From Syntrophales bacterium (GTDB taxonomy: Bacteria > Desulfobacterota > Syntrophia > Syntrophales > UBA6807): DNA of 64,000 nt. The notes beneath the pieces were generated by a model, which did not search any database, was not told where the DNA came from, and saw nothing but the letters and a program-made list of their open reading frames with translations. This document shows, one piece after another, positions 5,110-62,803 of this stretch (its first letter is position 1; the number at the start of each line of letters is the position of its first letter). Made by a program: the position numbers and the translations under genes. The stretch covers positions 192,001 to 256,000 of the forward strand of contig JAXGPA010000003.1 in NCBI GenBank assembly GCA_040767195.1, read 5' to 3'.

Positions 5110-5248
5110 GACAGCGGCTCTTTTCGTTTCCTTGATTTCCGCCGACCCGTCTTTTCCGTCACGGTCCTGTGGCCTTTCTCATAAGCATGGTTTCCCGGAT
5201 CTGAATGTAAGCGGTTCGCCCGGTTTCAATTGAAAGCGGCCATAGGGC

Positions 5249-5965
5249 CTAACACACCGGAGAGTTTTTGTCAATTTTCGCCCGCCTCGCCGTTCTCTTT
5301 TTGACCGGCCGGTTTCGGAGAAGGACATAGGTCGCCCCCGCCCCCCCGTCGCAGGGGCGGGCCGTCGAGAAAGCGGCGATCCATTTGTTCCAGGGGCTCC
5401 GGGTCAGGAAACGGCGGACCGTTTCCTTCAGCACCGGTTCGCCGGCACTGGAGAGCCCCCTTCCATGTATGACGAGAAGGGAGCGCTCCCCTCTTTCGAG
5501 AGTCTCCTGGAGAAAACGGGCCAGCGCGGCTTGCGCCTCCGGGGCGTTCAAACCGTGAAGATCGATGTGACGGCGGACTGAAAACTCCCCCCGGTGAAGC
5601 CGCCGGGCCAGATGATCGGGAACGCCGTGTCCCGTTCCCTCCATGTATTCCGGTGTAGAAGACAGAACGAAACCTTCGCCTTTTCGTATGAGAGCCTTCA
5701 GAAGCGTTATCTCCCCCAGGCCGCCCCCCCCGGAAACGGGATACACCCTCTTTTCCGGACAGGGTCCCACCGGACCGCCACCCTTCAGGGGTTTCACCCC
5801 CTCGGTGGCTTTCAGGAACAGGGCCTCATCGTCCTTCGCGTCCCCTGCCCCGTCTTTTTCCATCACCGGAACGGAGGAATCCCCTACGGCAAAGCCCCCT
5901 TCTTCGAGACGTTCCCGCAGATCCGAGAACGGCCGGTATCGAAAGGTAACCGGGCTTTTCTTCAT
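5249..5965 (-). CDS. Smr (small MutS-related) domain protein
   Basis: IDLHGL, VIHGRGLSS, DGGAGATYVLL Smr motifs; ATG at 5965 preferred over 5980. Confidence 0.88.
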   Translation of the reverse strand: MKKSPVTFRYRPFSDLRERLEEGGFAVGDSSVPVMEKDGAGDAKDDEALFLKATEGVKPLKGGGPVGPCPEKRVYPVSGGGGLGEITLLKALIRKGEGFVLSSTPEYMEGTGHGVPDHLARRLHRGEFSVRRHIDLHGLNAPEAQAALARFLQETLERGERSLLVIHGRGLSSAGEPVLKETVRRFLTRSPWNKWIAAFSTARPCDGGAGATYVLLRNRPVKKRTARRAKIDKNSPVC

Positions 5966-6238
5966 GAAATACCTTCGCAACGTTTTATTGAGGATAAGCG
6001 GAAAAAAGATTTTCTGTCAAGGCGAGGAGAAGCGGTCAACATCAAAAAAAGAAACGGAGCGACAAAATTGTCGTAAACGATTCACCCAAGCCCGGCCTTG
6101 CATCGCCGCTCCCGCAGAAAGGGGTACATCTCAGAAAGTCGACAATTATTTCCTTCGTTTTTTTTCATCAGGTTCGAAGGTCTCGGAGGAGATCGCCCCT
6201 TTCCCATGTCCTGCCTGAAATATTTTTTTCTTCATCTC

Positions 6239-6254
6239 TGGCATGTTTCATGCA
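6239..6254 (+). promoter_or_regulatory. Sigma54 (-24/-12) promoter
   Basis: TGGCATGTTTCATGCA with exact GG-N10-GC spacing; palindrome CGACAA-AA-TTGTCG at 6060-6073 could be an enhancer-binding site. Confidence 0.65.
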
Positions 6255-6264
6255 TTATCAAAAT

Positions 6265-6421
6265 TCAAAGATGCGACCAGTACCATCGTGCATGGGATCC
6301 CCCCCCGATTCCATACGCGATCCGCCAGTGTGGCTATGTTCCCCCTCCTTGCGTAGGCACTGGCCGGCAGTCAGCATCTGTCACAAAAGGGGAGGCGCAA
6401 GCCTCCCCTCCCCCCTTATTT
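6265..6421 (+). ncRNA. Candidate sigma54-dependent small RNA with C-rich loops
   Basis: Closing stem 6269-6277/6370-6379; hairpin 6285-6321 (loop C7); hairpin 6324-6364 (loop TCCCCCTCCTT); GCAA-capped 3' hairpin 6388-6409. Confidence 0.6.
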
Positions 6422-6652
6422 CCGGCGGAAACAACTTCTTATGAGACCCCATCCACAACTCTGTGGGAAACCCTGTGGAAAAATCTGTTCATGGGTCCTG
6501 TAAGATATGAGAAACGGCCCCTTTTGACCGTTTTGCACGAATCTTGTGCACATATTTATTTAAATATATCAATATATTATTTAAACTTGCAGGGGATACG
6601 AAAGGTTAACGGGGGGTCTCGACGAAACGCCCCGCGAGGCCACCGTTCCCCT

Positions 6653-7570
6653 TTATCGGACCGGAAAGAGCCAGTGATGAAAGTTTTTCTCTTTTCCGGC
6701 GAGAATTTCTTCCATGAATTGATTGATTCGAAGGGTGATCGGCCCGGGTACGGGGGCCAGGCTCCGGTTTCCCGTTCGTTCGATGGGAACGACTTTCCCC
6801 AGGGTTCCCGAAAGGAAGATTTCATCGGCCTCTTCGAGGGCTTCCGGTGGAAGTTTCTCCTCCACGGGATTCAGGCCCAGTGCTCCGGCAACTTCGAGAA
6901 CGGATTTGCGGGTGATGCTGTCGAGAATGCCCCCAAGGGATGGCGTCATCAGTCGCCCTTTTTTCACCAGGAAAACCGATTCCGTTCCGCCCTCCGCCAG
7001 GTAACCGTCCCGGTCAAGAAGAAGCGTGTAATCGAACCCCTTCTTTTTCGCTTCCTGGCGGGCCAGCATGCCGTTCAGATAATTGGCGGCCACCTTCGCC
7101 TCCACGGGAACCGTCCCGGGATCGAGTTTCCGCCATGAGGAGAGACCCATGGAAAAACCCTTTTGCGATCCCCCCTGCTGATGGAGGGGGTCCACCGACG
7201 CCGGGATGACAAAAACCGCGAGATCCAGGTCCTCCTCCGGCGGGAGGATCTCGTAAGCGATCCCCCCGTAGTAGCCGACGACCTTGATGTATCCCGACGA
7301 GAGGCTGTTTCTCCTGATGGTCTCGCAGATCGCCCGGGCAATCTCCTTTTCCCCGAGGGGAAGGCGCATTTCCAGGAGACCGGCGGTCTTCATGAGCCGC
7401 GCCACATGCGCGTCAAGGCGGAAAATCGAGGGCCCTTGAAGACCTTCGTAGAAACTCAACACTTCAAAGATGGCGGAACCGCGGCTGACGCTGTGGGATA
7501 GCAGATGCACCGTCGCCTCATTCCAGTCAACGTAGCGGCCGTTCAAAAAAATCGTTTTGTGATGCTTCAT
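6653..7570 (-). CDS. ilvE: Branched-chain amino acid aminotransferase (PLP class IV)
   Basis: IFRLDAHVARL, EAKVAANY (PLP Lys), AEGGTESVF, ILDSITR. Confidence 0.85.
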   Translation of the reverse strand: MKHHKTIFLNGRYVDWNEATVHLLSHSVSRGSAIFEVLSFYEGLQGPSIFRLDAHVARLMKTAGLLEMRLPLGEKEIARAICETIRRNSLSSGYIKVVGYYGGIAYEILPPEEDLDLAVFVIPASVDPLHQQGGSQKGFSMGLSSWRKLDPGTVPVEAKVAANYLNGMLARQEAKKKGFDYTLLLDRDGYLAEGGTESVFLVKKGRLMTPSLGGILDSITRKSVLEVAGALGLNPVEEKLPPEALEEADEIFLSGTLGKVVPIERTGNRSLAPVPGPITLRINQFMEEILAGKEKNFHHWLFPVR

Positions 7571-7599
7571 AACTCTCCGGGGGTCTCTCCCCTGTGCGT

Positions 7600-9285
7600 T
7601 CAGGGCCTCGTTAAGAGCCGATATTTAATCCGATGGGGCTGTTCCGCCTTCGCGCCCAGCCGGGCCCGGCGGTCAGCCTCGTATTCGCTGTAACTGCCCT
7701 CGAACCAGACCACCCGGCTTTCTCCTTCGAAACCCAGAATGTGGGTGGTAATCCGGTCGAGAAACCAACGGTCGTGGCTGATGACGAGAACGGACCCGGC
7801 AAAGGTCAGCAGGGCGTCTTCCAGGGCACGGAGGGTGTTGACGTCGAGATCGTTGGTCGGTTCGTCCAAAAGAAGAACGTTGGCCCCTTCCTTCAGCATG
7901 CGGGCTAGATGAACGCGGTTTCGCTCACCCCCCGAAAGCTCGGTTACCCTTTTTTGCTGGTCCGTTCCGGTGAACTGGAATCGGGCCAGGTAAGCCCTGG
8001 AGTTGACCTGCCTGCCGCCGAGGGAAAGAAACTCGTTTCCGCCGGAGATTTCCTCCCAGACCGTTTTTCCCGGATCCAGAACGTCCCGGCTCTGATCCAC
8101 CCAGGCCAGTCGCACCGTTTCGCCCTGTATGACGGTTCCGCTGTCGGGGATTTCAAGGCCGGTGATCATGCGGAACAGGGTGGTTTTCCCCGCGCCGTTG
8201 GGGCCCACGATCCCCACGATGGCTCCCGGGGGAACGGAAAAAGCCAGCCCGTCCATGAGAAGTCGGTCCCCGTATCCCTTGGTGACGCCGTCGGAGGCGA
8301 TGACGAGTTTTCCCAGACGGGGGCCCGGGGCGATAAAAATTTCCTGTTCCCGCTCCCTCTGTTCCTGTTCCTCGTTCAAGAGCTCTTCGTACGAAGCGAC
8401 CCGGGCCTTCGATTTCGCCTGCCTCCCCTTGGGGGACATGCGGATCCACTCCAACTCCCTTTCCAGGGTTTTCCGGCGCTGGGATTCCTTTTTTCCCTCC
8501 TCCGTCAGGCGCCTCTGCTTCTGTTCCAGCCAGGACGAATAATTGCCCTTCCAGGGAATCCCGTGACCCCTGTCCAGTTCCAGGATCCAGCCGGCCACGT
8601 TGTCGAGAAAGTACCGGTCGTGGGTGACGGCAATGATCGTCCCCGGGTAATTCCGGAGGTGATGCTCGAGCCAGGCCACCGTTTCGGCATCGAGATGATT
8701 GGTCGGCTCGTCGAGAAGAAGAATATCCGGTTTCTTCAGGAGAAGCCGGCAAAGGGCCACCCGCCGCCTTTCGCCTCCCGAAATGACCCGGACCGGCATG
8801 TCTCCCGGTGGGCATCGCAGGGCGTCCATGGCCATTTCCAGCCGGGCATCGAGATCCCAGGCGTCCTGGGCGTCCATTTTTTCCTGGAGGTCCCCCTGGA
8901 GGGCAATGAGACGTTCCATTTCATCGTCTGAAAGCGGTTCGGACAGTTTCTCCGAAACGGCGTTGTATGCGTCGACGGTGTCGACAATATCCCGCACCCC
9001 CTCCTCGACGACCTGGCGAACCGTTTTGTCATCGTCCAGACGGGGTTCCTGCTCGAGAAACCCGAGGGTGTATCCCGGGGAAAGAATGGTCTTTCCGATG
9101 AACTCCCTTTCCAGCCCGGCCATGATGCGAAGAAGGGTGCTTTTCCCGGACCCGTTGAGACCGATAACGCCGATTTTCGCTCCATAGAAATAGGAAAGGG
9201 AGATGTCTTTGAGCACCGTGCGGGTGCCGTACACCTTTCCCACGCCGAGCATGGAATAGATCACCTTGTTCGGTTCGTCCGCCAT
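7600..9285 (-). CDS. ettA: Energy-dependent translational throttle ABC-F protein EttA
   Basis: DISLSYFYGAKIGVIGLNGSGKST, two ABC domains, PHRIKYR C-terminus; GGAGG RBS before ATG 9285. Confidence 0.93.
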   Translation of the reverse strand: MADEPNKVIYSMLGVGKVYGTRTVLKDISLSYFYGAKIGVIGLNGSGKSTLLRIMAGLEREFIGKTILSPGYTLGFLEQEPRLDDDKTVRQVVEEGVRDIVDTVDAYNAVSEKLSEPLSDDEMERLIALQGDLQEKMDAQDAWDLDARLEMAMDALRCPPGDMPVRVISGGERRRVALCRLLLKKPDILLLDEPTNHLDAETVAWLEHHLRNYPGTIIAVTHDRYFLDNVAGWILELDRGHGIPWKGNYSSWLEQKQRRLTEEGKKESQRRKTLERELEWIRMSPKGRQAKSKARVASYEELLNEEQEQREREQEIFIAPGPRLGKLVIASDGVTKGYGDRLLMDGLAFSVPPGAIVGIVGPNGAGKTTLFRMITGLEIPDSGTVIQGETVRLAWVDQSRDVLDPGKTVWEEISGGNEFLSLGGRQVNSRAYLARFQFTGTDQQKRVTELSGGERNRVHLARMLKEGANVLLLDEPTNDLDVNTLRALEDALLTFAGSVLVISHDRWFLDRITTHILGFEGESRVVWFEGSYSEYEADRRARLGAKAEQPHRIKYRLLTRP

Positions 9286-62605: not shown

Positions 62606-62682
<77 letters not shown>

Positions 62683-62727
62683 AAATCTTTTCTATCCATT
62701 CAAGGAATCGAGGGATTCCTTTTTCCC

Positions 62728-62803
62728 TGGTAGGCGGAACAGGACTTGAACCTGTGACATCCACGGTGTAAACGTGGCGCTCTCCCAACTGAGCTATCCG
62801 CCC
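62728..62803 (-). tRNA. tRNA-Val (TAC)
   Basis: GGGCGGATAGCTCAGTTGG...CCACG-TTTACAC-CGTGG, TTCAAG T-loop, CCA end; 76 nt. Confidence 0.96.

Follow-up and report, generated by a model that had tools for sequence, protein, structure and literature searches.

A candidate sigma54-controlled small RNA with C-rich and anti-Shine-Dalgarno loops in a Syntrophales bacterium and its order-wide relatives

INTRODUCTION

Syntrophales are central to methanogenic syntrophy. Neither Rfam nor the literature searched, in which few subscription papers were covered, describes a regulatory RNA from this order, and the same literature describes no zraP-linked small RNA (sRNA) in Deltaproteobacteria.

In other bacteria, the use of C-rich loops against ribosome-binding sites is already well known. 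For example, the parts of the literature consulted describe 6C RNA as pairing with mRNAs through C-rich loops without a chaperone (PMC6486639). Hairpins showing C-rich or anti-Shine-Dalgarno (anti-SD) loops are what 6C RNA and the cuckoo RNAs (PMC4615179) have in common with the RNA described here. Within the same phylum, sigma54 regulators of Desulfovibrio vulgaris drive non-coding RNAs of the DVU0653, DVU0679 and DVU1419 regulons (PMC4641369, PMC3333781); these too are enhancer-protein-driven, and one belongs to an envelope-stress regulon. Pxr of Myxococcus is likewise a sigma54 sRNA; it is controlled by a kinase and its partner regulator, has a first loop that is functional and ends in a stem (PMC5568312, PMC5684412, PMC10217877). 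In CpxQ/cpxP and ZraP-ZraSR of enterobacteria, a two-component system controls a periplasmic accessory gene whose 3′ UTR holds an sRNA (PMC4817254, PMC4641369), an arrangement comparable to that of two genomes discussed below (G040 and G058). Finally, OxyS arose from an mRNA 3′ end, replaced the gene and stayed in its regulon (10.1101/2021.10.18.464853).

THE SIGMA54 CASSETTE AND ITS PREDICTED RNA

The window is the whole stretch of DNA analysed here, 64 kb of a Syntrophales genome (G000) that was compared with a same-genus relative (G001). The RNA gene lies on contig C7, between a divergent and a convergent gene:

5249-5980, minus strand: smr, an Smr-domain gene (PF01713, E 6.5e-23), divergent from the RNA gene; the same neighbour is present in G001
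5991-6020, minus strand: sigma70-like promoter of smr, with 10 of 12 consensus matches, separate from the sigma54 cassette
6060-6073, no strand assigned: enhancer palindrome CGACA-N4-TGTCG, putative binding site of a ZraR/AtoC-like activator
6139-6147, plus strand: second enhancer half-site TCGACAATT, 81 bp after the palindrome
6239-6254, plus strand: sigma54 -24/-12 promoter TGGCATGTTTCATGCA, with GG at 6240-6241 and GC at 6252-6253 in the spacing GG-N10-GC
6265-6421, plus strand: predicted small RNA 'type A', ~157 nt, a three-way junction followed by a 3′ hairpin, recognized by fold and conservation
6653-7570, minus strand: class IV (IlvE-like) aminotransferase gene (PF01063, E 1.6e-46), convergent with the RNA gene

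The original prediction had seen a -24/-12 element and an upstream palindrome, and both are present, 179 bp apart from start to start; it had missed the half-site. Transcription would presumably begin near 6265, given the usual sigma54 spacing convention. The genome encodes rpoN and carries 11 strict sigma54-like sites. Just two palindrome-plus-promoter cassettes are found, against 0.0007 expected by chance, and both have an RNA of this kind directly downstream.

The RNA itself is predicted to consist of four elements:

6269-6379, plus strand: closing stem (6269-6277 with 6370-6379), 8 of 9 pairs invariant among six alleles
6285-6321, plus strand: hairpin 1, 14 bp, loop of 7 C (6300-6306); stem changes are one-sided with pairing kept, and loop length varies
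6324-6364, plus strand: hairpin 2, 14 bp, loop UCCCCCUCCUU (6340-6350), the candidate seed, identical in 6/6 alleles
6388-6421, plus strand: 3′ hairpin (6388-6409), C6 tail and U-rich end, a likely terminator, possibly also for the convergent gene; it shares GGGGAG/CUCCCC with the family described below

The folded unit thus holds up in all its parts where it was first drawn, with the closing stem, the CCCCCCC loop and the complement of AAGGAGG (anti-SD CCUCCUU, 6344-6350) in the loop of hairpin 2. The proposed GCAA-capped 3′ hairpin is also there, but its cap is not conserved, being GAAA, GCAUA or GUUA in other alleles. Positions 6268-6417 have a folding energy of -65.8 kcal/mol (z -5.47, equalled by none of 200 shuffles; opposite strand z -2.76), and the G001 homolog gives z -6.0 on the plus strand against -1.1 on the opposite strand. 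In the ensemble prediction, the two C-rich loops and the C tail stay unpaired. A simple terminator scan makes no terminator call at the 3′ hairpin with its C6 tail and short U-rich run. At the gathering threshold, Rfam matches two tRNAs only in the window, the genes at 62609-62803 (minus strand), and it has nothing credible over the unit at E<=10. Further downstream, between the RNA and the aminotransferase stop codon, positions 6534-6590 hold a short inverted repeat and an AT-rich palindromic stretch.

AN ORDER-WIDE FAMILY OF CASSETTE RNAS

A model built from the G000 and G001 sequences gave weak matches in 13 further genomes of 150. Many of these were different RNAs that follow a sigma54 element and share the terminal GGGGAG/CUCCCC hairpin. 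Wherever a matched RNA had a promoter, the palindrome lay upstream of it too, at a distance of 395 bp in G002; model R1 finds other family RNAs mainly through the 3′ hairpin. In most relatives, the RNA unit is divergent from an operon encoding a ZraP/Spy-like protein, an AtoS/ZraS-like kinase and an AtoC/ZraR-like sigma54 regulator. Of the 339 genomes of the order, 248 contain the exact cassette pattern, and none contains the reversed control. The kinase is found in 316 of the 339 (199 of the 204 good ones), nearly always as a single copy; a genome-collection scan with a single kinase protein had returned four loci, one of them a true ortholog.

The cassette was read at 120 kinase loci, namely the top of the list and 10 loci chosen to cover missing families. 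Palindrome and promoter point away from the kinase at 98 of these with a strict promoter and at 106 with a relaxed one. Over the 106, the palindrome has the consensus TTCGACAATTTTGTCGAA and the half-site recurs in 103, mostly 84-92 bp past the palindrome (81 in the window). The palindrome-to-promoter distance is mostly 167-196 bp, compared with 179 bp in the window. A scan with the IHF consensus finds an IHF-like site in 57 of the 106 loci versus 11.7 after shuffling; the window locus has none. Insertions also occur: L055 and L056 (genus g2) carry ~200 bp between half-site and promoter, and a similar repeat-like element lies at the L068/L078 kinase locus.

A 3′ hairpin was detected in 89 of the 105 loci with enough sequence, giving RNAs of 76-221 nt; the 16 loci without one, 15 of them from family f2, were dropped. 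Most f2 RNAs (L097-L136) lack the usual 3′ hairpin and have a second loop with ACCUCCUG. The motif CUCCU/UCCUCC, chosen after seeing these data and counted in related genomes that are not independent, is present in 74 of the 89 RNA bodies; shuffled sequences give 9.3, upstream controls 12 and the antisense strand 15. It is missing from 15, including 4/4 of f13 and 3/3 of f20. The motif is open (>0.8) in only 47 of the 74, and in type D it can pair with the 5′ strand of the RNA's own terminator. Type D is the commonest type (46 sequences), and its helix 1 covaries, with 30 double-change cells against 13.6 (0 of 500 shuffles, above all slid controls); this count covers helix 1 only, the terminator being out of register in the alignment. 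Type B combines a constant UCCU loop with stems that differ. Rfam has 0 matches to 10 loci with the other family types.

Type A carries the marks of this family: palindrome, half-site and promoter, the CUCCU motif, and the GGGGAG/CUCCCC 3′ hairpin. Its body is a genus-restricted three-way junction with no detectable sequence homology to the family 5′ hairpin: a search with R2, a model of the type-B 5′ hairpin, misses the window RNA at E<=10, and by eye the likeness to family bodies is a short CC.CCGATTC. Nor is type A divergent from the kinase operon, since the kinase lies on contig C1 and the RNA on C7. The second G000 cassette (C1:336178-336325; L067:3179-3325) precedes a type-B RNA, occupies the same locus in G001 (L032), and lies divergently upstream of a Nudix-like ORF and PTS EIIA-man genes. 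The promoters of all four copies in the genus end in TCATGCA, an ending found at 0 of the 106 kinase loci, and this points to a duplication of the cassette inside the genus. Meanwhile, the kinase loci of G000 and G001 keep the palindrome, along with the squalene/phytoene-synthase-like gene located downstream of the RNA in sister genera. They have no promoter or RNA, so the RNA genes of the window genus sit elsewhere. The type A locus is specific to the genus as well, because none of the smr orthologs of genus g5 has a type A-like RNA nearby. Type A very likely belongs to an uncatalogued regulon that spans the order, as a member that has diverged and been relocated; it is one of two copies in its genome away from the kinase operon.

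Extra copies are not unique to the window genus, because multi-cassette genomes elsewhere hold further sRNA copies. By hand count, 39 genomes have at least two cassettes. Among 20 hand-picked sites in multi-cassette genomes, 14 appear to be additional sRNA copies, no fewer than 9 of them away from the kinase, five precede ORFs (one PEMT/ICMT membrane protein, one PsiF-like protein and three without a Pfam match) and one looks like chance. Cassettes before protein genes were seen at L260, L262, L263 and L268, the products being a PEMT/ICMT-family membrane protein, a secreted protein that is PsiF-like and a membrane protein for which the part read gives no Pfam match. At L128 (G014), the whole cassette and its RNA are tandemly duplicated, ~960 bp apart. 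Genus g10 (L034, L035, L036) has a ~300-nt structured region without a sigma54 promoter that ends in a GGGGAGG/CCUCCCC hairpin and a CU tail; at L035 it lies 3′ of an outer-membrane-protein-like ORF and is a possible 3′ UTR sRNA.

PROPOSED MECHANISM AND TARGETS

The best overall explanation is that type A is a free-standing, Zra-like-regulated, trans-acting anti-SD repressor, probably independent of Hfq, and we assign this reading as a whole a probability of about 0.6. The regulator encoded at C1:772437-773798 would be switched on by the AtoS/ZraS-like kinase, with tuning by the ZraP/Spy-like periplasmic protein. The activated regulator would bind the palindrome and half-site and open the sigma54 promoter. 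The RNA would then fold with its two C-rich loops and C-rich tail single-stranded, and these would pair with G-rich SD regions and block translation of several mRNAs, probably under envelope stress. In the window genus, two copies would have left the kinase operon, with the window copy bearing a distinct body.

Pairing of the loops with mRNAs at their SD regions is reasonably likely, and translational repression by this route is plausible. No Hfq, ProQ or CsrA was found in G000, which is 98.8% complete, and the RNA probably acts without Hfq. By analogy with 6C RNA and LhrC (PMC4132741, in the part consulted), chaperone-free pairing of G-C-rich loops is the best model. A CsrA-titrating RNA was considered and rejected, as the loops are C-rich rather than GGA and G000 has no PF02599 match.

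The original prediction had proposed a target search with the loops as seeds, and the outcome was generic rather than a specific target set. Loop 2 is predicted to bind 188 of 2006 crude start regions more strongly than -12 kcal/mol, and 82% of the top 50 predicted targets pair at the SD region. Envelope proteins are not enriched among the predicted targets (24% versus 33%, p 0.17), and no gene of the kinase operon itself ranks higher than 954 as a target of loop 2. The first- and third-ranked genes, clpP and ilvE, were re-tested in five relatives. Pairing with clpP reaches -24.8 in G000 and -21.6 in G001, compared with -7.4 to -14.9 in four genomes without type A; for ilvE the values are -25.0 and -23.4 versus -12.5 to -21.0. 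Just 50 of the 2006 G000 starts reach -21.6. The two genes are leads only, because G000 was the selection set and one genus amounts to one observation.

Alternatively, a real sigma54 RNA could act on a protein or another RNA, as a decoy or sponge in the manner of GlmY, rather than cover ribosome-binding sites. We consider this unlikely, although several features are in its favour. Approximately 40 nt of hairpin 2, including the stem, are invariant in six distinct alleles, a longer stretch than a seed would require. A further invariant loop motif of the commonest family type, GGGCA, is not an anti-SD sequence, and CUCCU is absent from some families. It is set against the finding that an exposed SD complement is the feature common to otherwise unlike family types, with stems varying around the motif, as well as by the missing CsrA, Hfq and ProQ and by a plus strand without GGA loops.

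THE PROBABLE CONTROLLING KINASE-REGULATOR OPERON

The regulator at C1:772437 is AtoC/ZraR-like, and sequence evidence makes it very probably the activator of the type A RNA. G000 has eight exact palindromes, of which the three intergenic ones belong to the two RNA genes and the kinase operon. The last of these, at C1:776427 (L066), is an orphan with no sigma54 promoter or RNA on its far side and may serve autoregulation. At L068, a good sigma54 site was seen by eye on the kinase operon's own strand; its G000 counterpart is degenerate. The recognition helix (I/L)(S/T)ER(M/T)LRYK is kept in 33/33 regulators whose C-terminal end was read (38 loci), including those of outside family f48, and this near-invariance fits an invariant palindrome.

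Assignment to named families is looser. The G000 proteins score 447 versus 760 bits for NCBIfam ZraR and 206 versus 479 bits for ZraS, both under the cut-off, and the AtoC/AtoS models score higher, yet also below their cut-offs. The ZraP-like protein of the G000 operon, encoded with the kinase and sigma54 regulator, matches PF13801 below the cut-off (E 2.8e-5); matches above it (E 6e-13 to 4e-24) are found in G040, G058 and G437. The window palindrome is unlike the sites of the D. vulgaris ZraR-like regulator DVU3381. Sites predicted for the AnfA/VnfA-like DVUA0143 of D. vulgaris do share the form CGACA-N4-TGTCG, and the motif alone therefore does not identify the binding protein.

That likeness, together with the fact that the window copy adjoins no regulator, raises the prospect that another of the 13 enhancer-binding proteins of G000, for instance a nitrogen-type one, switches on a real RNA and that the envelope-stress reading is wrong. 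This is improbable: the palindrome lies beside one and the same kinase operon across the order and in f48, and the helix of DVUA0143 is, by eye, unlike that of the C1:772437 regulator. An envelope-stress response of the regulon stands at even odds. The analysis gives a name to a near-universal two-component system, to the site it likely binds and to its RNA output, so direct tests are possible.

CONSERVATION OF THE TYPE A UNIT

A BLAST search of the unit against 60 relatives returned one real homolog, at the same locus in G001, and a 24-nt match on the 3′ hairpin. The G001 homolog is 86% identical exactly from promoter to terminator. A metagenome scan added 10 type A loci, and the nine that are long enough all have the palindrome, half-site and promoter. 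The homolog search that had been suggested thus finds promoter and loops kept in G001 and the metagenome loci as the spacers diverge. The suggested covariation check gave nothing of the kind, as 0 of 45 pairs changed on both sides among six close alleles; the type A fold therefore rests on energy and conservation rather than on covariation. Public RNA runs over 5200-7600 (4 of 16 listed, from 3 studies) consist of contigs only, which also cover the flanking genes and may include DNA; X1 has a hole at 6206-6424.

A decaying duplicate, or a mere terminator region of the convergent aminotransferase gene with an incidental fold, could account for the UUUU run that follows the 3′ hairpin on the minus strand and for the confinement of type A to one genus-level group. 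Such an origin is very improbable given the 86% identity of the unit next to unalignable spacers and flanking genes at 70-73%, the better fold of the plus strand (z -5.5 and -6.0 versus -2.8 and -1.1 in G000 and G001) and the intact enhancer and promoter in all alleles. A small-protein gene or cis-acting leader is scarcely credible: contrary to the first description of a promoter with no ribosome-binding site or ORF behind it, an ORF (6250-6444) does cross the unit, but it has no SD, is broken by a frameshift or a stop after 28 codons in 4/6 alleles, and faces a convergent next gene, and downstream of the 89 family RNAs 37 genes are convergent and 21 same-strand (28 unclear, 3 too short).

Positions 6265-6421 are, on sequence evidence, very likely to be a real and probably functional small regulatory RNA gene. 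The central proposal of an sRNA driven by sigma54 and an enhancer-binding protein is strongly supported by the conservation of promoter, palindrome, half-site, loops and terminator, and a likely activator can now be named.

ORIGIN OF THE FAMILY

A phylum-wide search for the cassette pattern, limited to exact matches with 164-194 bp spacing such that other lineages may have variants, found it in 8 of 401 genomes, four of them outside the order (families f48 and f123). In these four, the cassette drives protein genes bearing ribosome-binding sites, with ZraP/Spy-like products at 4/5 sites (at L194, PF13801 E 3.8e-24). Inside the order, G040 and G058 carry a ZraP-like ORF, and the ORF-less RNAs found in four other f13 genomes can be aligned with the leader and 3′ UTR of this ORF. 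In a quick kinase tree, the ORF-bearing pair splits off at a basal fork of the order that is unresolved, and the RNA types sort with the clades of the kinase. Together these sequences suggest that the family probably arose from the 3′ UTR of the regulon's zraP-like gene with loss of the ORF, the direction being our reading of the comparison. On this reading, the order provides a second, order-wide case in which an sRNA replaced its parent protein gene; both states survive in one family, and copies are seen leaving their regulator and diverging.

COMPARISON WITH KNOWN SYSTEMS AND OUTLOOK

A more far-reaching scenario is that an ancestral zraP-like stress-chaperone transcript was cut down to its 3′ UTR in nearly all of the order. 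What a core two-component system puts out would thereby have turned into a mobile cassette of enhancer, sigma54 promoter and terminator, with RNA bodies swapped and duplicated between lineages, and the window copy, with a new body, would serve as a chaperone-free global translation brake. We hold this to be doubtful in its entirety. If true, the brake would act in energy-limited syntrophs on a wide set of mRNAs with strong initiation, clpP and ilvE being two of the best predictions.

The original prediction had likened the RNA to Pxr as a sigma54-linked sRNA with C-rich loops. This link is one of analogy, as the Pxr covariance model (RF01812) has no match at 5980-6700 at E<=10 and its best G000 matches, 14-16 bits against a cut-off of 80, lie elsewhere; C-rich loops in Pxr are unconfirmed, the term 'C-rich' occurring 0 times in the text of PMC5684412 consulted. 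Pxr is also described as lying downstream of its own pxrK-pxrR and as confined to Cystobacterineae, whereas type A is flanked by smr and the aminotransferase gene and the family RNAs are divergent from the kinase. LhrC1-5 of Listeria monocytogenes differ in being of unrelated sequence and phylum, in an abstract that mentions no sigma54 enhancer (PMC4132741), and in that type A is predicted only. Unlike 6C and cuckoo RNAs, as far as the consulted parts describe them, type A has no Rfam match, a loop that is not CCUCCUCCC, a three-way junction and sigma54 control.

In D. vulgaris, the DVU1419 sites are unlike the window palindrome (PMC4641369, PMC3333781, in part), and DVU3381-DVU3384 has another enhancer, with the G000 proteins falling under the ZraR/ZraS cut-offs (PMC4641369). 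Compared with the CpxQ and ZraP systems as described in the sources, the ORF is gone in most genomes here and the RNA is free-standing. The OxyS account, in the part consulted, offers a parallel in that the family RNA would be an mRNA 3′ end that replaced its gene and kept its regulon. The regulator class differs, and here the ORF-bearing and ORF-less states live side by side in one GTDB family and copies have moved.
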